Positions 2,500 to 51,932 of a DNA stretch of 64,000 bases are shown here, in pieces. Source of the stretch: Candidatus Nomurabacteria bacterium (GTDB taxonomy: Bacteria > Patescibacteriota > Minisyncoccia > Phycocordibacterales > UBA9973). The notes under the pieces were generated by a model, which saw only the letters and a list, made by a program, of their open reading frames with translations, did no database searches and was not told where the DNA came from. Every line of letters begins with the position of its first letter. Position 1 is the first letter of the stretch. The stretch lies in assembly GCA_052035195.1 (NCBI GenBank), contig JBPOHU010000009.1:34107-98106 (forward strand), given 5' to 3'. The translations under genes and the position numbers were made by a program.

Positions 2500-3024
2500 T
2501 TATTCAACTTTCAAATCTTTTAAAATCTTATCTGCCATCTCTTTTGTACTCATTTCTCCTGAATCAAAAGTCTCTGTAGCAGGGTAAGTATTTTCTTCGT
2601 AAATCTTTGAAAGGATATCCATAGTTTCTTGGCTCATCATTGGTTTGTTTACTCTTTCTTGGCGTTCTGCAATACGCGCAGTACGCACGTCGGGATGAGC
2701 TTCTATTTTGTATACAAAGAAATCAGCATGATGACTATCTGCGATTTGTTTTAATTTCTCTACTTGCTCATTATTCATGCCCTGGTCAACAATGGTGCTA
2801 ATACCATTTTTTAGATATTCAGCGATCATTGCATCCGTAACGTTTCTACTTACTTCATTGTGTGATTCTATTTCTCGGAATTGAGATACATATCTTTTGA
2901 TGTGGTCTGTAGATACGTGGGCAGTATTTACCAAATCATTTTTTAGCATTTCTGCTAGAGTACTTTTCCCAGCTCCCGCAGACCCAAGAATTGCAACTAC
3001 AAAAGGTTTTTGTGTTTTATACAT
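2500..3024 (-). CDS. P-loop NTPase / small kinase-like ATPase (AAA_33 / zeta-toxin-like fold candidate)
   Basis: Walker A GSAGAGKST near N-terminus, 174 aa; no further family assignment possible by eye. Confidence 0.5.
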   Translation of the reverse strand: MYKTQKPFVVAILGSAGAGKSTLAEMLKNDLVNTAHVSTDHIKRYVSQFREIESHNEVSRNVTDAMIAEYLKNGISTIVDQGMNNEQVEKLKQIADSHHADFFVYKIEAHPDVRTARIAERQERVNKPMMSQETMDILSKIYEENTYPATETFDSGEMSTKEMADKILKDLKVE

Positions 3025-14874: not shown

Positions 14875-15008
14875 GTTTGTAGTTTTTATTTTTAAAAGAA
14901 AAATTGTTTTATTCTATAGTATTATAACACACAAATTGCTATTTTGTCAACTATATCTATATCTCCAAAAAAGGTATGATTTACCTATATAAATAATGCA
15001 TAAATAAC

Positions 15009-16963: not shown

Positions 16964-17091
16964 TGTTTTTTATTTAAAATGAGCAAATGTGTGTTTTTGA
17001 TCTTCTATTAAATAATAGCATATTTAATGCTATTTGTCAAGTAAAAAAGCCCTCACTTATTGCTAAGTAGGGCTTGGTGTTATTGGGTTTT

Positions 17092-28899: not shown

Positions 28900-29960
28900 A
28901 TAGTGAGTTTGTTATAAAGAAAATTGTTTCTGAGAGTATGAATACTCCTTCGGGGGACAACTGTCAGCCTTGGTATTTTTCTATAAAAAATTCAACTCTT
29001 TTTGTTTATAAAAAAGATGAAGGTAATAATAACTACTTAGATTTTGAATCAAGGGGGACACTTTTGGCCCATGGTGCTTTAGTTGAAAATATATCTTTAG
29101 TCGCAAGACATTATGGTTATAGTATAGAAAGTACTTTTTTTCCAGAAAAAGATAAAAAAGACTTAGTAACAACAATTAGTTTTTTAGAAAATAATTCTTT
29201 AAATAAAGAAGAAGATGATCTTTTTGAGTTTTTACCAAAGAGGTCTACAAATAGAAAACAATACTTTAAGAAAGCTATTTTAGAAAAAGATAAAGAATAC
29301 CTATTAAGTAATCTAGGTCAGAACAATGTAACTCTTGATTTTATAGGAGATGATTCGGATAAAAAAAATATCTTTATTTCAACAACTCAAATGGAAAGAG
29401 TAGCTCTACAAAACAAGTTTTTACATAAACTCTTTTTCAGTAGCATCGTTTGGTCACAAAAGGAAGAACAAGAAAAAAAACAAGGACTTTATTTAAAAAC
29501 TATGGAGTTACCACCACCAGTTGCTGTTTTCTTTAGATTACTTAAATTTTGGCCGATTGCTAAGTTTTTGTCAAAAATCAGCTTTTCAAAAAAAGTCGCC
29601 GAGAACAACGCATCTTCATATCAGTCTTCTTATCCCGTTATTTTTTCTATAAAAAATACAGACCCTATTTCTTATATTGAACTAGGTATGGCTGTAGAGC
29701 GTTTTTGGCTTAGAGCAACAAAATTAGATATTGCTGTTCAGCCACTAGCTGGAGTATTATATATGTATCAGCGATTACATGAAGAGGGTAATAAAGATGC
29801 TGTTTTATCAAAAGAAGAAGTTCGTCTAATAGAAAATAGTTATCAAAAAATTAAAAATTTTACTTCGGATAGTGATGCTATAGTTTCTATGATCTTAAGA
29901 GTAGGGTATTCAAAAAAAGCTTCAGCAATATCTTCAAAAAAAGAACCTGAATTCTTATAG
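28881..29960 (+). CDS. Nitroreductase-fold protein, double-lobed (SagB/McbC-type dehydrogenase-like or Acg-like)
   Basis: N-terminal PSGDNCQPW box (nitroreductase FMN-binding start) and a second nitroreductase-like half near the C-terminus; 19-nt overlap with the upstream gene. Confidence 0.55.
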   Translation: MDKETINSEFVIKKIVSESMNTPSGDNCQPWYFSIKNSTLFVYKKDEGNNNYLDFESRGTLLAHGALVENISLVARHYGYSIESTFFPEKDKKDLVTTISFLENNSLNKEEDDLFEFLPKRSTNRKQYFKKAILEKDKEYLLSNLGQNNVTLDFIGDDSDKKNIFISTTQMERVALQNKFLHKLFFSSIVWSQKEEQEKKQGLYLKTMELPPPVAVFFRLLKFWPIAKFLSKISFSKKVAENNASSYQSSYPVIFSIKNTDPISYIELGMAVERFWLRATKLDIAVQPLAGVLYMYQRLHEEGNKDAVLSKEEVRLIENSYQKIKNFTSDSDAIVSMILRVGYSKKASAISSKKEPEFL

Positions 29961-34953: not shown

Positions 34954-36336
34954 TTAAAAGTCATCGAGAGACTTGGCTTTAGGTGTTGGCATGTGAGACT
35001 TGTCGATAGTTAGAAGTGTTGTAGTTTTTGCATCAAAGAGTAGGTCTACTTTTCCAACGGCACCGTTACGGTGTTTTTCTATTAGTACTTCCACGATGTT
35101 ATCTTTTTCGGCTTGCTCTTTATATCTGTCTTCTCTGTGTAGGAACATAACAACATCGGCATCTTGCTCAATACTACCTGAATCTCGAAGGTCAGAAAGA
35201 CGAGGCTTTCCACCACGAGCTTCCACGGCACGAGATAGCTGTGAGAGAGCTAGTACTGGAACATCGAGCTCACGAGCTAGTTGTTTGAGGGCGCGTGAAA
35301 TTTCGGTGATTTGGTTAACCATGTTGTCATAGTTTTTACTTGCATGAATGAGCTGTAGATAGTCGATAACTATGAGTGCCAAGCCATGTTCACTTTTTAG
35401 TCTTCGCGCTACGGCACGCATTTTGACTATTGAGTTTCCAGCTTGGTCATCGATATAGATAGGAGCTTTCTGTAGTCTACTTGCTGCATCTTGAAGTGTA
35501 GAGAAATGCTGAGAGGAGAGTCCGTGACCTGTACGAATAGCCCATGCGTCCACACGACTCTCAGCAGAGAGCATTCTTTGTACTAGTTGACCCGCACTCA
35601 TTTCAAGAGAGAAAATACCAACAGCCCTACCTGAGAGAGCCACATTGCGAGCAATATCAAGAGCAAATGTTGTTTTACCAATACTTGGTCGAGCAGCAAG
35701 AATGATCAGGTCTGACTTTTGTAGTCCCGCTAGGAGATTGTCGATATCTGGGAAGCCTGTAGGTACACCGCGCACTTCGTCCTTATGTTCACGTAAGTAT
35801 TCTATTTGTTCAACAGTTTCCATCAATCCTTGTTTGATAGATACGAAACCATTTTTAACATTCATGTTTGATGACACACGGAAAATACTTTTCTCGGCAG
35901 AGTCTAGTATGTCAGCTACATCTTGGTCCGCTTCAGCATAAGCTTGGGTAGCGATTTGCTCTGATGCATCTATAAGACTTCTTAAAATATGTTTTTTGTA
36001 AACGATGTCAGCGTAGTGACGAATGTTTACAGTTGATGGGACATTGCCCATAACTTCATTTAGATAACTATTTCCACCTATTTCATTTATTTGTTTTTTC
36101 TCTTTGAGCTTAGAGGCTACAGAGAGTACGTCTATTGGTTCGCTTTTGGCTGAGAGCTCAAGCATTGTTTGAAAAATAGTTGTGTGTTTGCGAGCATAAA
36201 ACATCTCTGGAGACAAAAGATCAGTAATCTCATGTATTGCTGATGGGCGAAGCATTAAGGCACCCAAGACAGCCTGCTCACTTTCAAGAGAATGTGGGGG
36301 AATACGGAGCTCTGAGAGATTGTTGTTCTTTACCAT
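34954..36336 (-). CDS. dnaB: Replicative DNA helicase DnaB
   Basis: N-terminal PPHSLESEQAVLGALML, Walker A ARPSIGKT, RecA-like C-terminal domain. Confidence 0.9.
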   Translation of the reverse strand: MVKNNNLSELRIPPHSLESEQAVLGALMLRPSAIHEITDLLSPEMFYARKHTTIFQTMLELSAKSEPIDVLSVASKLKEKKQINEIGGNSYLNEVMGNVPSTVNIRHYADIVYKKHILRSLIDASEQIATQAYAEADQDVADILDSAEKSIFRVSSNMNVKNGFVSIKQGLMETVEQIEYLREHKDEVRGVPTGFPDIDNLLAGLQKSDLIILAARPSIGKTTFALDIARNVALSGRAVGIFSLEMSAGQLVQRMLSAESRVDAWAIRTGHGLSSQHFSTLQDAASRLQKAPIYIDDQAGNSIVKMRAVARRLKSEHGLALIVIDYLQLIHASKNYDNMVNQITEISRALKQLARELDVPVLALSQLSRAVEARGGKPRLSDLRDSGSIEQDADVVMFLHREDRYKEQAEKDNIVEVLIEKHRNGAVGKVDLLFDAKTTTLLTIDKSHMPTPKAKSLDDF

Positions 36337-45235: not shown

Positions 45236-46369
45236 ATGAATCGCATCAAAGAATTTTTTCTTGAAAAACAAAAACCATTTGACGCGTACTTTTTTTGGAT
45301 TGTTATTTTAATAGCTGGTTTAGGATTGCTGTTTTTTATTTCTGCTTCTCTTGGAATACTCGCTCGTAGTGAGACCAAGTTTTATGGGGTTCTTTTTAAC
45401 CAAATAGTTTTTGGTTTTGTTGGAGGACTGATAGCCTTATGGTTTTGTGCTCGAGTACCTTATACATTTTGGCGGAAATACGCTTTCTATATTTTTCTAG
45501 GAGCTCTTGCTTTGACTGTTTCTGTTTTTATAAATGGTTTTGGCTTTGAGCATGGAGGAGCAAGAAGATGGGTTTCTATTTTTGGTGTTTCTCTTCAGCC
45601 TGCAGAATTTTTGAAAATAGCTTTTGTTATTTATTTTTCTGCATGGTTGGCTTGGACTCGTAAAAAACAAGAAGATATCAAGTTTCGTATTTTGCCATTA
45701 CTTGTTCTTTTAGGAATAGTAGCTTTGGCTCTTTTGCGACAACCAGATACCAAGAGTTTGATACTTATTATTGCAGCTGCTTCCGGCATGCTTTTCACTT
45801 CTGGTGTCTCTTGGAAAAAAGTAGTCGGCATAGTAGTTCTCGGTATTGGGGCTGTAGTTGTACTAGCTTTTGTCCGGCCTTATGTTATGGATCGTATCAA
45901 GACCTTTATAAACCCTGCTAGTGACCCTAGAGGAGCTTCTTATCAGCTTCAGCAGTCTTTGATAGCCATAGGCTCAGGAGGAACATTTGGACGAGGTCTT
46001 GGTCAAAGTGTTCAGAAGTTTAACTATTTGCCAGAACCACAAGGGGACTCAATCTTTGCCGTTATTGGCGAAGAATTCGGTTTTGTTGGGACAACACTAC
46101 TTTTAGTTTTGTATATTTTCTTTGCAATTCGTGGCTTCAAAATAGCCCTTCGTGCGCCGGATACATTTTCTAGGTATCTAGTTGTAGGACTGATCACTCT
46201 TTTGACAGCTCAATCATTTTTAAATATTGCTTCTTTGGTAGGACTATTTCCTCTAACTGGAGTACCTCTTGTTTTTATCAGTCACGGAGGGACAAGTTTG
46301 ATGATTGCTCTGGGGGCTGTCGGTATTATTCTTAATGTTTCTCGGCAACAAAAGAAGCCTGTAGTATAA
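45236..46369 (+). CDS. ftsW: SEDS-family peptidoglycan polymerase FtsW/RodA
   Basis: 10-TM SEDS pattern with conserved PEPQGDSIF and GGTS blocks; lies between mraY and murG. Confidence 0.85.
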   Translation: MNRIKEFFLEKQKPFDAYFFWIVILIAGLGLLFFISASLGILARSETKFYGVLFNQIVFGFVGGLIALWFCARVPYTFWRKYAFYIFLGALALTVSVFINGFGFEHGGARRWVSIFGVSLQPAEFLKIAFVIYFSAWLAWTRKKQEDIKFRILPLLVLLGIVALALLRQPDTKSLILIIAAASGMLFTSGVSWKKVVGIVVLGIGAVVVLAFVRPYVMDRIKTFINPASDPRGASYQLQQSLIAIGSGGTFGRGLGQSVQKFNYLPEPQGDSIFAVIGEEFGFVGTTLLLVLYIFFAIRGFKIALRAPDTFSRYLVVGLITLLTAQSFLNIASLVGLFPLTGVPLVFISHGGTSLMIALGAVGIILNVSRQQKKPVV

Positions 46370-46377
46370 TAAAGATT

Positions 46378-47505: not shown

Positions 47506-47508
47506 AAA

Positions 47509-47547
47509 AGCCTCAAAAATTCTAAATTAGACTTTTTGAGGCTTTAA
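47509..47547. terminator. Hairpin terminator after murG (agcctcaaaaa-13 nt-tttttgaggct)
   Basis: 11-bp stem; overlaps the 3' end of the minus-strand gene at 47527. Confidence 0.55.
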
Positions 47548-47859
47548 TCTTTTTGGTAAAAACCATCCCTGAATCCAAAAAAATATCGGTATTGAAAATT
47601 TTAACAAAAAAGACCCAAATATATAGACGCCTAGGTCTTCATTGATTAAGAATGCCGTAAAGAACAAGATTAATACAATGATTGCAAGGAAAGCTATAAA
47701 TTTTGAGTATCTCTTGATTTCTGTTCTTCTGATACCTGTTGGATGCTTGAAATGTTTTACCAAATATCCATGATGCGAAATTACAAGTAGATTAAAAATA
47801 TTTAACAATATTGCAAGAGCAAATATTGCCCAAGACAGGATTTCTAATAATTTTTCCAA
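47527..47859 (-). CDS. Small membrane protein (3 TM), hypothetical
   Basis: 110-aa ORF with three hydrophobic helices; preceded by terminator-promoter module 1. Confidence 0.45.
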   Translation of the reverse strand: MEKLLEILSWAIFALAILLNIFNLLVISHHGYLVKHFKHPTGIRRTEIKRYSKFIAFLAIIVLILFFTAFLINEDLGVYIFGSFLLKFSIPIFFWIQGWFLPKRLKPQKV

Positions 47860-47891
47860 GGTGTTATTTTTGTTTAATTTACACTTTTTAA

Positions 47892-47930
47892 AATTTTTGT
47901 CAAAAAAAACTCTCCCTGGACAAGGAGAGT
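47892..47930 (-). promoter_or_regulatory. Terminator-promoter module 1 (hairpin + U-run merging into TTTTTGACAAAAATT -35-like box)
   Basis: Same architecture as modules at 48342 and 48848. Confidence 0.5.
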
Positions 47931-47966
47931 TGTTATGTAAAAACTAAAACGAGAAACTTTTATAAC

Positions 47967-48326
47967 CTAGTTATTATATAGACGCCGCCTTGCTTTTATG
48001 CGGGCTTTTGTCACCATCTTTCCAATCGTATAGATTGTCACGCACAGGATGCTGGTGATAGAAAATATGGTTATTATCTTCAGGAAGAAGCCGATTTCCC
48101 AATTAGTTTTTTCATCTGTTGATATAGCAAAAAAAACAGACAAAAGAAAAATAAGTGAAAAAATTATCCAGAAGTACACACTCCACATTTTTAACAGTGA
48201 AGGAGGGAGCATTCTGTGGGATCCGGTCCATAGCCCGAAAATAAAAGAGCAGATCAAAAGCGTAATTGCTATTAAGATAGAAATTAACAAATAAGTTTCC
48301 ATGGTTAACAAGTTTTGTTTGCTCAT
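47967..48326 (-). CDS. Small membrane protein (3 TM), hypothetical
   Basis: 119-aa ORF; possibly paralogous to 47527-47859. Confidence 0.45.
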   Translation of the reverse strand: MSKQNLLTMETYLLISILIAITLLICSFIFGLWTGSHRMLPPSLLKMWSVYFWIIFSLIFLLSVFFAISTDEKTNWEIGFFLKIITIFSITSILCVTIYTIGKMVTKARIKARRRLYNN

Positions 48327-48341
48327 ATAGTACTAGAATTT

Positions 48342-48387
48342 AAATTTTTGTCAAAAAAATACCCCGCAGATTTTATTTTGCGGGGTA
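48342..48387 (-). promoter_or_regulatory. Terminator-promoter module 2 (taccccgc hairpin + TTTTTTTGACAAAAATTT)
   Basis: GC stem 8 bp, then U-run containing TTGACA, 17 nt, TACTAT. Confidence 0.5.
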
Positions 48388-48393
48388 TAGCAT

Positions 48394-48810
48394 TTAAGCT
48401 GTTTGTTTCAGTGCCAGATTATCTTTTTTGAACTTCACACTTTGAAGTTCTTTGGTTACTTCACTTTCGGCGATTTCTGTCAAAATATCCCAATCAACGA
48501 GGTGGCTGATCCTCTCTATCTCTATGTCATATCCAGGGAATGACACAAATTTGAAAACCTTGCCACCTCCTAGACCTTCATATCTTGCAGATATGAGGTT
48601 CTCAGCCAATCTCTTTTGCCAGGGTTTTGCCATGGCAATATGCTCCTGAGAAGCTTTGAAATTCTCATGAGAAAAGCGGGGTACAACAGGGTCTTTTTCA
48701 TCAAAAAAAGACAACATAAGAGGAACAGATAAAGGTTTAAAAACCCTCTTTAAGATTGCTTTGTTAGGTGTTTCTTTGGGGAATACCCACAGAAATTTCT
48801 TTTTTGCCAT
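48394..48810 (-). CDS. Hypothetical protein
   Basis: 138-aa ORF. Confidence 0.45.
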   Translation of the reverse strand: MAKKKFLWVFPKETPNKAILKRVFKPLSVPLMLSFFDEKDPVVPRFSHENFKASQEHIAMAKPWQKRLAENLISARYEGLGGGKVFKFVSFPGYDIEIERISHLVDWDILTEIAESEVTKELQSVKFKKDNLALKQTA

Positions 48811-48847
48811 AATTGGATTAGTTTTTTGTTATTCTAATACAAAAATA

Positions 48848-48890
48848 ATTTTTGTCAAAAAAAACCCTTCTTTCACGAAGAAAGTAAGGG
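48848..48890 (-). promoter_or_regulatory. Terminator-promoter module 3
   Basis: cccttctttc/gaaagtaaggg bulged hairpin + TTTTTTTTGACAAAAATTA. Confidence 0.5.
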
Positions 48891-49304
48891 TCTGTGATTT
48901 CTTGGCTTCTCTGGAAGGTTTATTGTTATAACCTCCGTTTTTAAAACATAAGAAAGCATGGGGTTTATAGCTTCTGCTATTATCCACCAATCAATAGTCG
49001 GGCCATATCTTTGCAAGCGGACACACCCTTTTTCAAATGTAATTGTTTTAAAAGGTGCCCTTTTGCCAAAACCGTCATTTATCAGCATCCCTACAAGTAG
49101 TTCTTTTATAAAATCTTTTTGCAGTTGCGTCATAAGGTCAGTATCATGGCTAAACTCGATGTAGTTGATATGGGTGACCATTATTTTTGGTTGGTTTCTT
49201 GTACCAGGAAAAATCTCCTGGTTGTGAGCAGGAACCAAAAAGGCGGTTTCAGAGCTTTTTTTACTTGGTCTCCAGGTGATTGTTAAGGTGTTACTATTTT
49301 CCAT
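48873..49304 (-). CDS. Hypothetical protein
   Basis: 143-aa ORF; its 3' end overlaps module 3. Confidence 0.45.
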   Translation of the reverse strand: MENSNTLTITWRPSKKSSETAFLVPAHNQEIFPGTRNQPKIMVTHINYIEFSHDTDLMTQLQKDFIKELLVGMLINDGFGKRAPFKTITFEKGCVRLQRYGPTIDWWIIAEAINPMLSYVLKTEVITINLPEKPRNHRPLLSS

Positions 49305-49339
49305 GAAATCAGTTTTTCATCACTTTACTAGAAAATCCG

Positions 49340-49372
49340 TTTTTGTCAAAAGTCATTTTTCTTGCTAAAGTA
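49340..49372. promoter_or_regulatory. Module 4: palindromic TTTTTGTCAAAAG core, usable as TTGACA for the minus gene at 49304 and as TTGTCA-17 nt-TAAAGT for gltX on plus
   Basis: Divergent intergenic region of 73 nt. Confidence 0.4.
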
Positions 49373-49377
49373 AACAC

Positions 49378-50826
49378 ATGGAAAATACTCAAAAAGTCGT
49401 CACTCGCTTCGCCCCGAGCCCAACAGGTTTTGTTCACATAGGAGGTATACGTACAGCTCTCTTTGCTTATCTTTTAGCTCGTAAATATGGTGGAAAATTT
49501 ATTCTTAGAATAGAAGACACGGACCGTGCTCGTGTGGTTGATGGTTCACTTGAACATATTCAAGAGTCTTTAAAATGGCTTGGTCTTAATTGGGATTTTG
49601 GACCTGACAAACCAGGATCATTTGGTTCTACTATTCAATCAGAACGTCGTGACACTTATATTCCTTGGGCACAAAAACTTATTGAAAAAGGTTTGGCTTA
49701 TCCTGACCCTTATACACCAGAAGAAGTAGAAGCATTTAGACAAAAAGCTCAAGAAGAAAAAAGAGCATTCTTATATAGAGAACATAGACCAGAAACATTT
49801 GGTGTTTGGGATGGAAAAACTGCGCTTAGATATAAGGTTCCAGAAATCAAGCGTTATGATTGGTATGATGAAGCTCGAGGAAGATTGTCAGCTGGCCCAG
49901 AAGCATTAGACGATATCATTATCATGAAAGCTGATGGCTATCCTGTTTATGCTTTTGCTCATATTATTGATGATTACAATATGGGAGTTACTCATATATT
50001 GCGCTCTGATGAATGGATATCAAGTGTTCCTCGTTTTTTGAGTTTGTATGAATCATTAGAAATACCACCTCCAATACAAGCTACTTTGCCACCGATATTG
50101 CGAGATGATCGTACAAAAAAGCTCGGAAAAAGAGATGGCGCAAAAGATGTTCTTGATTATAAAAAGGAAGGATATTTGCCGGCCGCTATACTTAACTATC
50201 TTGCGCTTATTGGATGGAATCCAGGAACAGACCAGGAGTTATTTACTCTCGAAGAGTTGATACAAGCATTTTCTCTTGATCGTATTCAAAAAGCCGGAGG
50301 AGCATTTAATGAAGAGAAACTTGATTGGTTCAACAGAGAATATATTAAGAAGCTCTCAACAGAAGAGTTTTGGGATTATGCCAAGCCTTGGATACCAGAT
50401 AATTACAAAAATACTGAGCTTGCCGAAGTATTGAAAAAACTAGAATCAATTATTCGCGACAGAATAGAGAAGTTTGCAGATGTAAAAACTTTGTTTGAAG
50501 GGGCTAGTCCTGAGCTTGCCGAAGGAGAGATGGATTACTTTTTCAAAGCTCCAAAGGTAGATGATGCGATGTTATTTTGGAAAGACTCAACTCTTGAAAA
50601 AGCTCATGAATTTCTTAAGGAAATAAAATCTATTTTGAAAGATTTAGAATCTTGGGATTATGAAAGTATCAAAGGCGCTATTTGGCCTTATGCAGACAAA
50701 GAGGGTAGAGGAGCAGTGTTGTGGCCTATGCGGGTAGCTCTTTCAGGGAAAGAGAAGTCACCAGACCCATTTGAGATAGCAAGTATTTTGGGCAAAGAAG
50801 AGACTTTGAAAAGGTTGACTTTTTAA
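49378..50826 (+). CDS. gltX: Glutamate--tRNA ligase
   Basis: VVTRFAPSPTGFVHIGGIRTALFAY N-terminus, class I catalytic core, 482 aa. Confidence 0.9.
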   Translation: MENTQKVVTRFAPSPTGFVHIGGIRTALFAYLLARKYGGKFILRIEDTDRARVVDGSLEHIQESLKWLGLNWDFGPDKPGSFGSTIQSERRDTYIPWAQKLIEKGLAYPDPYTPEEVEAFRQKAQEEKRAFLYREHRPETFGVWDGKTALRYKVPEIKRYDWYDEARGRLSAGPEALDDIIIMKADGYPVYAFAHIIDDYNMGVTHILRSDEWISSVPRFLSLYESLEIPPPIQATLPPILRDDRTKKLGKRDGAKDVLDYKKEGYLPAAILNYLALIGWNPGTDQELFTLEELIQAFSLDRIQKAGGAFNEEKLDWFNREYIKKLSTEEFWDYAKPWIPDNYKNTELAEVLKKLESIIRDRIEKFADVKTLFEGASPELAEGEMDYFFKAPKVDDAMLFWKDSTLEKAHEFLKEIKSILKDLESWDYESIKGAIWPYADKEGRGAVLWPMRVALSGKEKSPDPFEIASILGKEETLKRLTF

Positions 50827-50841
50827 ATCAAAAATGCTATA

Positions 50842-51300
50842 ATGCTAGTCGATAAACCCATTTGTTCTAAAAAAATTAAATTTATTCTTATGAGCCCTTT
50901 TGCAACTATTTCTGATATGCCTTTTTCAAAGGAAGATCGACTTGGACTGTTCTTGATCCTTATTGAATGCAGGACAGCTACAAAGGTCAATATTGATAAA
51001 GAGACAGCAGAACTTGGCCTCATCAAGATACTTTTGATGAGGATAGGTTTTTTCTTTTCAGAAATAAAAACACCAGAAGATTCAAAAACCATTTGCATGG
51101 CCGTATCAAAAACAAAAAGCTGCGCAGATGAGCTTAAGAAAGCTGTTGAAACAAAAGACCAGGTAAAATTTAAGGAATTATCAGGCTACCAACCCGTATT
51201 CCCCTTAGAAAAAAACCACGAATCACTTATTAAAATGCTAAGAGAAAAGGCTCCTAGTCTTTATAAAGATTTCGCTCCAACAGTCCTTAGGGTGGCATAG
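50842..51300 (+). CDS. Hypothetical protein
   Basis: 152-aa ORF followed by a terminator. Confidence 0.4.
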   Translation: MLVDKPICSKKIKFILMSPFATISDMPFSKEDRLGLFLILIECRTATKVNIDKETAELGLIKILLMRIGFFFSEIKTPEDSKTICMAVSKTKSCADELKKAVETKDQVKFKELSGYQPVFPLEKNHESLIKMLREKAPSLYKDFAPTVLRVA

Positions 51301-51318
51301 TGCCACAAAGAAATTACG

Positions 51319-51352
51319 GAAGCCGTTTGATATCAAACGGCTTTTTTGTTTC
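51319..51352 (+). terminator. Rho-independent terminator (aagccgtttga-tat-tcaaacggctt + T6)
   Basis: 11-bp stem. Confidence 0.8.
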
Positions 51353-51360
51353 TTGAAAAT

Positions 51361-51391
51361 AAAAATTGCACCGATTTTGCGGTGCAATTTA
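51361..51391 (-). terminator. Terminator for the 51394-51846 gene (ttgcaccg-caaaat-cggtgcaa + U-run on minus)
   Basis: 8-bp stem; forms a convergent terminator pair with 51319-51352. Confidence 0.75.
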
Positions 51392-51393
51392 CT

Positions 51394-51846
51394 TTAGTTA
51401 AGTTGGGCGTTGAAGTCTTGTTCAGTTTCGTCCTCTTTCTTCAAAGAGTACGTTGCCATATCAAACTTCAAAGATAATAAAATAATAATTTGAATAGGTT
51501 TTCCTCCTTGGATAGTACCAAAAATAACCCAGCAATCCGGAAACACTACTTTTTCAAAGAAGTAAGCCCCAGCCCTTAGTATCCCGGATGTGCTACTTTT
51601 AGAAAAAACACTTTGAGTATTTAGTTTTGAGTCAGTTGTTATCTTTGTTTTTAAAAGTTTCGGAGGAAAAGCATTTTCAATGATCAATCTCAACTTTCTT
51701 TTGCCAAATTCTGGATTATCAGGATGAGAAACTATAGCTTCCATAGGAAAAGATCTTATCAGTCCCTTTGAGAGCAGTTCGAGTTGTTCTATTTGAGACT
51801 CGAAAGATATCATGCCTGTAGAGGGGAAGGTGCCTTTTTGTATCAT
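51394..51846 (-). CDS. Hypothetical protein
   Basis: 150-aa ORF. Confidence 0.45.
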   Translation of the reverse strand: MIQKGTFPSTGMISFESQIEQLELLSKGLIRSFPMEAIVSHPDNPEFGKRKLRLIIENAFPPKLLKTKITTDSKLNTQSVFSKSSTSGILRAGAYFFEKVVFPDCWVIFGTIQGGKPIQIIILLSLKFDMATYSLKKEDETEQDFNAQLN

Positions 51847-51932
51847 TACTATAAATTTTAATGTGGTTTAAAGATATAATACAGTAAATATATAAAATGT
51901 CAAATAAAAAGAATTGTAAAAGGTTTTGAAAT

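Follow-up and report, generated by a model that had tools for sequence, protein, structure and literature searches.

This study concerns a row of four small genes, and the DNA modules that separate them, in a 64-kb stretch (the window, to which all coordinates refer) from an uncultured patescibacterium of the Candidate Phyla Radiation (CPR; Paceibacteria/Parcubacteria-like, 36.5% GC). The four open reading frames (ORFs), all of which were confirmed, lie on the minus strand between murG and gltX, both of which are on the plus strand. Read from murG, they are tm110 (47527-47859), which adjoins murG, starts with TTG and encodes a 110-aa protein with three hydrophobic segments; tm119 (47967-48302), whose product likewise has three hydrophobic segments; s138 (48394-48810), which encodes a 138-aa soluble protein and is the sole cassette found in every island of this kind; and s143 (48873-49304), which encodes a 143-aa soluble protein distantly related to that of s138. 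Intergenic spaces in the island measure 62-107 nt, or about 130 nt before tm119 when its start is revised as described below. From the evidence of sequence and its conservation, we consider it likely that the locus is an island of four single-gene cassettes, each with its own ordinary promoter and intrinsic terminator, fused at the junctions.

Predicted fused terminator-promoter modules between the genes

The island holds three exact copies of a 17-mer, AATTTTTGTCAAAAAAA, at 47892-47908, 48343-48359 and 48847-48863, and a variant of this core at 49340. The original prediction for this DNA, made from the sequence, listed three near-identical cores plus the variant, with the second and third coordinates off by one nucleotide, and called the core palindromic; it is a near-palindrome only (TTTTTG-T-CAAAAA), since its centre is odd. 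One explanation would be that AT-rich intergenic composition produced these repeats by chance. A- and T-runs are indeed common at 36.5% GC, and a search for the 13-mer core with at most one mismatch gave 11 strand-hits in the window against 1.09 expected, among them the variant at 49340 and intragenic near-copies at 29565 and 54907. The three exact 17-mers, however, compare with 0.36 expected, a number that none of 100 shuffles reached, and no further copy was found anywhere in the window even when two mismatches were allowed. All three copies stand at gene junctions, in the same placement relative to genes and hairpins, and this is conserved in five other lineages. The 17-mer is thus not ubiquitous through AT bias, and we give the chance explanation practically no weight.

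When the minus strand is read, each of the first three copies consists of a GC hairpin and a run of seven or eight T's that leads straight into TTGACA, and at all four modules this hexamer is followed by 16 nt and a TAnnnT box. The final two T's of each terminator run are also the opening two bases of the next TTGACA. At module 1, the predicted terminator of tm119 (47902-47931, on the minus strand like all module elements) comprises the hairpin AACTCTCCTTGTCCAGGGAGAGTT and T8 (-12.9 kcal/mol, z = -4.0), and the predicted promoter of tm110 (47876-47903) comprises TTGACA at 47903-47898, 16 nt, TAAATT at 47881-47876 and a 16-nt A-rich stretch that ends at the TTG start. Module 2 joins the putative s138 terminator (48353-48387; hairpin TACCCCGCAAAATAAAATCTGCGGGGTA and T7 running into TTGACA; -17.7 kcal/mol, z = -5.0) to the putative tm119 promoter (48327-48354), in which TTGACA at 48354-48349 is followed by 16 nt, by TACTAT at 48332-48327 and, after 24 nt, by the ATG at 48302. 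At module 3, s143 would be terminated (48857-48891; -15.1 kcal/mol, z = -4.3) by a bulged hairpin (ACCCTTACTTTCTTCGTGAAAGAAGGGT) that shares bases with its stop codon and runs through T8 into TTGACA, and the candidate s138 promoter (48831-48858) has TTGACA at 48858-48853, 16 nt, TAGAAT at 48836-48831 and a conserved 20-nt A-rich leader, matching 11 of 12 consensus positions. Module 4 carries the candidate s143 promoter (49322-49349), with TTGACA at 49349-49344, 16 nt, TAAAGT at 49327-49322 and 17 nt to the ATG. It has no hairpin and only four T's, because no gene there needs terminating.

The four promoters match 10-11 of 12 consensus positions, and the three hairpins differ from one another in sequence, with z-scores of -4.0 to -5.0 relative to shuffles. 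Folding energies between -12.9 and -17.7 kcal/mol bear out the distinct GC-rich hairpin that had been predicted beside each of the first three cores. The hairpin followed by a U-run that passes into TTGACA was likewise recovered, with T7-8 for the U8 proposed, and the spacing to the -10 box proved to be exactly 16 nt in all four cases rather than 16-17 nt.

The layout of module 2 also corrects one gene start. The ORF of tm119 had been listed to 48326 (119 aa), where its ATG lies directly against the -10 box. This upstream ATG is missing from three of four comparable lineages (L081, L090 and L091; relatives are designated here by L and a number) and is kept only in the near-identical strain L082; it is also absent from the unrelated leader of L084. 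Because the upstream ATG lacks conservation and abuts the -10 box, the true start of tm119 is almost certainly, to judge from these alignments, the one that opens with METY at 48302, which gives a protein of 111 and not 119 aa. The four minus-strand genes originally described thus all stand, with the second start moved from 48326 to 48302.

At the other end of the island, the convergent genes murG (plus strand) and tm110 (minus strand) share a predicted bidirectional intrinsic terminator at 47507-47545, which has the stem GCCTCAAAAA...TTTTTGAGGC with a T-run on each strand and folds at -21.1 kcal/mol on the plus strand and -20.4 kcal/mol on the minus strand. The gap between these two genes, 21 nt long, is identical in L081 at 21 of 21 positions.

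Conservation of the junctions and nature of the core

Orthologous islands were taken from the contigs of relatives, and six lineages were compared (window/L082, L081, L090/L091, L084 and L086-88). Nucleotide identity to the window was 97% for L082 and 82.5% for L081. TTGAC(A/T), a 16-nt spacer and TAnnnT were found at 27 of 27 junctions, and every internal junction has a hairpin of -9.4 to -19.8 kcal/mol with a T-run of 6-10 that starts 0-2 nt past the stem. Between the window and L081, the intergenic modules are 85-88% identical in nucleotide sequence, compared with 63-74% for the genes that they separate.

The single modules show how these elements have changed. At module 1, the promoter spacing and both boxes are kept in L081, L082, L084, L086, L090 and L091, and the hairpin occurs in four forms, all of which fold: CTCTCC...GGAGAG in the window, CCCTCC...GGAGGG in L090, CCCCCCG...CGGGGGG in L081 and GACCTTT...AAAGGTC in L084. 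The step from the window to L090 is a compensatory change from a T-A to a C-G pair. The module 2 hairpin is identical in L081, L082, L086 and L090 and is replaced by an unrelated one in L084; here the orthologous -10 boxes read TATCAT, TAATAT and TAGTAT, and the -35 box of L081 is TTGACT. At module 3, spacer and leader are nearly invariant in all six lineages, the hairpin of L081 is different, and in L084/L086 an unrelated hairpin stands behind another gene. The comparison shows that purifying selection has held the T-run, both promoter boxes and their spacing, and that the hairpin sequence turns over freely. Since hairpin structure survives this turnover beside a fixed T-run, fixed boxes and fixed spacing, the elements are best read as working terminators and promoters under selection.

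These data bear on whether the four genes might instead form a single polycistronic operon transcribed from module 4, with the hairpins serving as leaky attenuators or as 3'-end stabilizers or processing sites and the internal TTGACA boxes weak or inactive. Such an operon would suit four genes on one strand with short gaps and -10 boxes that are weak and lack TGn, and bacterial intrinsic terminators often let some transcription through. Yet every internal junction in six lineages keeps both promoter boxes and their exact 16-nt distance despite changes in spacer sequence and hairpin, which would be difficult to account for if transcription did not start there, and U7-10 tails behind stable GC stems are the hallmark of efficient termination. 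We therefore regard a single operon as unlikely. The earlier suggestion that each gene is a transcription unit of its own is backed by the 27 of 27 junctions that keep their signals while the hairpins change, and on this comparative basis it appears well founded.

Each cassette would then consist of a housekeeping-sigma promoter (TTGACA, 16 nt, TAnnnT), an A-rich leader of 16-24 nt without a Shine-Dalgarno sequence, a small gene and a Rho-independent terminator ending in U7-8. RNA polymerase would stop and restart at each module, and the four genes would be separately expressed. It is because the intergenic spaces are so short that the last two U's of a terminator double as the start of TTGACA. 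The elements are standard ones, and their arrangement is real, conserved and tidy.

Several points weigh against this interpretation. Promoter and terminator activity are predictions from sequence, and a generic promoter scan of the AT-rich window found 23 promoters where shuffling led us to expect 21.5. A lone hexamer match means little, and the case therefore rests on conservation. The 27 of 27 count comes from a regular expression that presupposes the pattern, although it did hit every junction. The boxes TAAATT, TACTAT and TAAAGT are weak -10 elements without the TGn extension of the window's strongest promoters, and the A4-5 tract that is conserved downstream of the -35 box falls outside standard promoter rules.

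The near-palindrome TTTTTGTCAAAAA would arise where the T-run of a terminator meets a -35 box that is trailed by an A-tract. At module 4 the T-run shrinks to four T's in the window clade or two in L084/L087, and the A-tract persists there; at L081 module 1, which reads TTGACATTTTTTT, it is the A-arm that has been replaced by T's. The A4-5 tract is kept in 25 of the 27 modules. Because the two arms vary independently across lineages, the T-arm is evidently part of the terminator and the A-arm part of the promoter, and the symmetry of the core is, on this evidence, a by-product.

The four island promoters were also set against eight unrelated TTGACA-type promoters of the same window. Over the first five spacer bases, identity was 0.90 among the island promoters and 0.43 among the controls, and over the A-rich leader 0.47 and 0.35, a value reached by 10 of 495 subsets; the other 11 spacer bases gave 0.39 and 0.41. 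The island promoters are thus closer to one another than the controls are only over the first five spacer bases, in the A-rich leader and in the T-run upstream. This indicates that the 17-mer is a string of short functional elements and no repeat family. The modules are not recent duplicates of one another, their spacers outside the functional elements being at control-level identity. A repetitive extragenic palindrome (REP) or a miniature inverted-repeat transposable element (MITE) was also rejected: the three hairpins differ, and only the 17-nt core of T-run, -35 box and A-tract is common to them and is found nowhere else in the window. The reiterated cis module of the original prediction is accordingly withdrawn, the remaining spacer showing an identity of 0.39 compared with 0.41 in the controls.

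It had further been proposed that the palindrome could be an operator for a shared dimeric regulator, in which case TTTTTGTCAAAAA would co-regulate the four genes and gltX. The core is symmetric and lies over the -35 box of every promoter, and its A-tract is unusually well conserved (25 of 27 modules, with the identity of 0.90 given above compared with 0.43 in the controls). The half-sites, however, are not conserved jointly, which is hard to reconcile with a dimeric site: the T-arm is long only behind a hairpin and falls to four or two T's at module 4, the A-arm is lost at L081 module 1, and the centre is changed at L081 module 2 (TTGACT). Arms of T5 and A5 carry little specificity at 36.5% GC. 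No regulator-like gene lies in or beside the island, although a regulator encoded at a distance is possible. No Pfam hit of the four island proteins or of two neighboring ORFans reached the gathering cut-off, and the sub-threshold hits of the island proteins were to membrane families only, none of them DNA-binding. An operator function is in our judgment improbable, and the fusion of ordinary terminators and promoters accounts for the symmetry without it.

It had also been suggested that the fourth copy can serve, on the plus strand, as a -35 box for gltX. The predicted gltX promoter (49343-49377, plus strand) has an extended -10 element, TGC-TAAAGT, at 49363-49371, which ends 6 nt before the ATG, with TTGTCA at 49343-49348, 17 nt upstream. 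The TTGTCA-17-TAAAGT arrangement, preceded by TG, does exist in the window, and the TTGTCA-17 layout recurs in L081, L082, L083 and L059, the last of these reading TTGTCA-17-TGcTACTAT-6-ATG. It is broken in L084/L087, where a 13-nt insertion moves TTGTCA to 30 nt from the gltX -10 box. From these alignments, it is more likely that gltX uses the extended -10 element (TGcTAAAGT) than TTGTCA. With the -10 element ending 6 nt before the ATG, a leaderless mRNA is implied.

Cassette content and turnover of the island

When one genome per species was scanned, 80 gltX loci were recovered, 60 of which also contain murG. In most of the 60, murG and gltX are on the same strand and 5-200 nt apart, compared with a gap of 1.87 kb in the window. 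With tblastn, none of the four island proteins found a match in the 80 related loci, and L059, which has the most similar gltX, has a murG-gltX gap of 541 bp with only small unrelated membrane ORFs. Because murG and gltX are adjacent in most relatives, the four genes appear to be a lineage-specific, fast-evolving insertion between them. About ten genomes (among L003-L078) carry unrelated insertions of 0.4-1.6 kb at the same place, such as the DUF559-like endonuclease ORFs of L040 and L043. By this comparison, the murG|gltX boundary is evidently a recurrent insertion point in Paceibacteria.

The proteins themselves evolve fast, with 28-87% identity between lineages compared with 90-95% for MurG. 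Orthologs of tm110 in L081, L084, L086 and L090 are 49-93% identical and share an invariant ISHHGYLVK motif, and the tm119 homolog of L084 is 31% identical, with the motif W..SH..LP.SL. Paralogy among the four proteins was detected for one pair. The s138 and s143 proteins are collinear (BLASTP E = 3e-4; hhalign 80%, E = 1.5e-5 over 88 columns), and these alignments identify them as distant paralogs, while no relationship was detected between tm110 and tm119 (hhalign 1.8%). Pfam, PADLOC and PHROGs returned nothing above noise for any of the four, and the AlphaFold model of s138 (predicted local distance difference test score 68.8) had no fold match in the PDB (best E = 0.09, template-modeling score below 0.5). 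An exhaustive profile search found only seven relatives among 1.84 billion representatives, word-indexed protein searches of databases of up to 5.8 billion sequences found 3, 4 and 9, and a scan of metagenome contigs with the s138 profile revealed no island beyond those compared here. An exact 12-mer, TATATAGACGCC, occurs at 47620-47631 and 47975-47986, near the 3' ends of both membrane-protein genes and in differing reading contexts; this coincidence is probably due to chance.

Cassette number, which the original prediction had proposed to check, varies among relatives, which have three or four. The order s143, s138, tm119, tm110 is shared by the window, L081, L082 and L090. In L084 the place of s143 is taken by an unrelated 127-aa membrane protein (TM127), which has only a 20-residue C-terminal motif (50%) in common with tm119. 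In L086, L087 and L088 a 121-aa version of TM127 (TM121) occupies this place, and tm119 is missing. The resulting s138-tm110 junction of L086 is composite: its hairpin is that of window module 2, which follows s138, its core is the shared one, and from the spacer through the -10 box to the leader it matches module 1 of L084, upstream of tm110. Both ends of the tm119 indel thus lie inside the core of 16-18 nt that modules 1 and 2 have in common. Slippage or deletion through short homology could plausibly act on direct repeats of 16-18 nt that lie about 450-500 bp from each other. As a secondary consequence of the fused layout, such identical cores would allow precise loss or gain of a cassette and leave a hybrid terminator-promoter that still works.

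A stronger version of this idea is that the T-run/TTGACAAAAAT core acts as a portable junction, at which units made up of spacer, -10 box, leader, gene and hairpin are deleted, inserted or swapped by short-homology recombination that regenerates a terminator-promoter each time. The indel in L086/87/88, the swap of s143 for TM121/127, the turnover of hairpins and a breakpoint at the island edge, described below, are all compatible with it. A further point to be set against our interpretation is that the recombination idea comes from one indel, and that MurG identities of 90-95% root the tree too weakly to tell loss from gain. A mechanism cannot be established from a single event, and we therefore hold the portable junction to be possible but doubtful. 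If true, it would make the island a gene-cassette array without an integrase, in which a reduced CPR genome keeps genes for small, fast-evolving proteins.

Single-gene cassettes in one orientation, varying in number and content, with an indel that ends in the core and a breakpoint at the gltX edge of the island, might also point to a dedicated cassette system, in which hairpin and core would be integron- or attC-like recombination sites and their likeness to promoters and terminators secondary. Small single-gene units, hairpin-bearing junctions and differing content among relatives are features that the island shares with integron arrays. Integron cassettes, however, are usually promoterless, and attC sites are imperfect palindromes of 55-140 nt with R''/L''...L'/R' core sites (GTTRRRY). 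The island has no integrase, attI or attC architecture, and each of its cassettes has its own promoter and terminator. No integrase or recombinase gene lies nearby, the flanks being ftsW, murG and gltX in the window, L081, L084, L086 and L090. The hairpins are only 20-28 nt long and mutually unrelated, and inspection, without an attC covariance-model search, revealed no GTTRRRY-type core sites. The conserved part is exactly a promoter, which site-specific recombination does not need, and most lineages carry orthologous cassettes acquired by vertical descent. We judge a dedicated recombination system highly improbable; variation in an island of ordinary promoter- and terminator-bearing cassettes is explained by ordinary homology- or slippage-mediated events.

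A mosaic structure was observed in gltX, the promoter and first six codons of which are L081/L084-like, and which is L059-like from about 49400. Across the breakpoint (49386-49430, plus strand), at the 5' end of gltX and the edge of the island, identity to L081 drops from at least 90% to 33-60%, and that to L059 climbs from about 50% to 83-96%. The GltX protein is about 91-92% identical to that of L059 and 42-44% to those of L081/L084, compared with MurG identities of 95% (L081), 92% (L084) and 74% (L059). This switch suggests that a distant allele has replaced gltX, the crossover lying in the conserved VVTRFAPSPTG region at the edge of the island.

Downstream of gltX, at 50842-51903, lies a second pair of ORFans, which encode 152 aa (plus strand) and 150 aa (minus strand). 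Back-to-back hairpin terminators are seen at 51318-51345 and 51363-51390, with a TTGACA-16-TATTAT promoter at 51903. These two ORFans have no homolog in the 80 related loci, and both are present in L082.

Predicted transcription signals in a compact genome

The fused layout is not confined to the island. At an unrelated junction (17095-17035, minus strand), a hairpin of -14.8 kcal/mol is followed by U6, AC and TTGACA (promoter at 17040), and upstream of the genes at 2500-3024, 4916 and 40486 promoters lie 10-20 nt past hairpin terminators. In every segment of the window, terminator-like sites are about 2.5 times as numerous as in shuffles. Because the same arrangement recurs at 17040, we take the fused layout to be a habit of this compact genome and not specific to the island.

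The modules can accordingly be placed beside well-known elements. Like other Rho-independent terminators, theirs consist of a GC stem-loop followed by U7-10, overlap the stop codon or lie within about 45 nt after it, and keep their structure; unlike them, they have a U-tract whose 3' end is the 5' end of the next -35 hexamer, with no spacer DNA between. The promoters resemble sigma-70-type promoters in their perfect TTGACA, a spacing within the 16-18 nt range and TAnnnT, and the AT-rich tract upstream may act as a proximal UP element. They differ in a spacer that is always 16 nt without TGn, whereas the window's strongest promoters use 17-18 nt and TGn, in the A4-5 tract after the -35 box, and in very short A-rich leaders without a Shine-Dalgarno sequence. 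The unusual features, namely the bases shared by U-tract and -35 box, the invariant 16-nt spacer without TGn and the conserved A-tract, are quantitative. As a whole, the island is comparable to flexible genomic islets, the murG|gltX position being used independently by unrelated genes in several Paceibacteria and its ORFans outpacing the flanking core genes; it differs from them in its size of 1.9 kb, in having no tRNA, mobility gene or flanking direct repeat, and in vertical inheritance down to protein identities of 28-87%.

Two flavors of TTGACA promoter were observed in the window. Housekeeping-looking promoters with a 17-18 nt spacer and TGn occur at 14950(-), 17040(-), 17689(-), 4404(+) and 50815(+), and promoters with a 16-nt spacer and no TGn precede small ORFan genes at 47903, 48354, 48858, 49349, 51903 and 56791, all on the minus strand.

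A strong leaderless-mRNA signature was also seen across the window: 18 of 65 genes have a TAnnnT box whose end lies 6-8 nt ahead of the start codon. The TGn extension is present in ten of the 18 boxes, and at no other distance from 1 to 25 nt was a TGn box found. Shine-Dalgarno-like 4-mers were at background in the window (4 vs 3). Examples of the signature lie upstream of 2500-3024(-), 4916, 34954-36336(-), 46378 (murG), 49378 (gltX), 58007, 58623 and 59010. In the case of murG, a TGtAGTATAAT-type box at 46342-46377 stands 7 nt before the ATG, within the 3' end of ftsW, which suggests an internal leaderless promoter inside the cell-wall gene cluster. A literature search on leaderless and promoter features of CPR bacteria and on terminator-promoter overlaps found nothing directly relevant.

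Taken together, the elements described here are textbook ones, and the finding refines existing knowledge rather than overturning it. Few members of the Patescibacteria are in culture, and their transcription signals are almost entirely inferred; this locus provides a clean, comparatively validated example. It is of use for correcting gene starts, one of which is revised here, for predicting operons and for designing expression parts for these organisms. The murG|gltX position holds rapidly evolving ORFan membrane and soluble proteins, of a kind that may mediate host interaction in episymbionts. In the bases common to a terminator tail and the next -35 box, the locus would show how far such signals can be compacted in a reduced genome.

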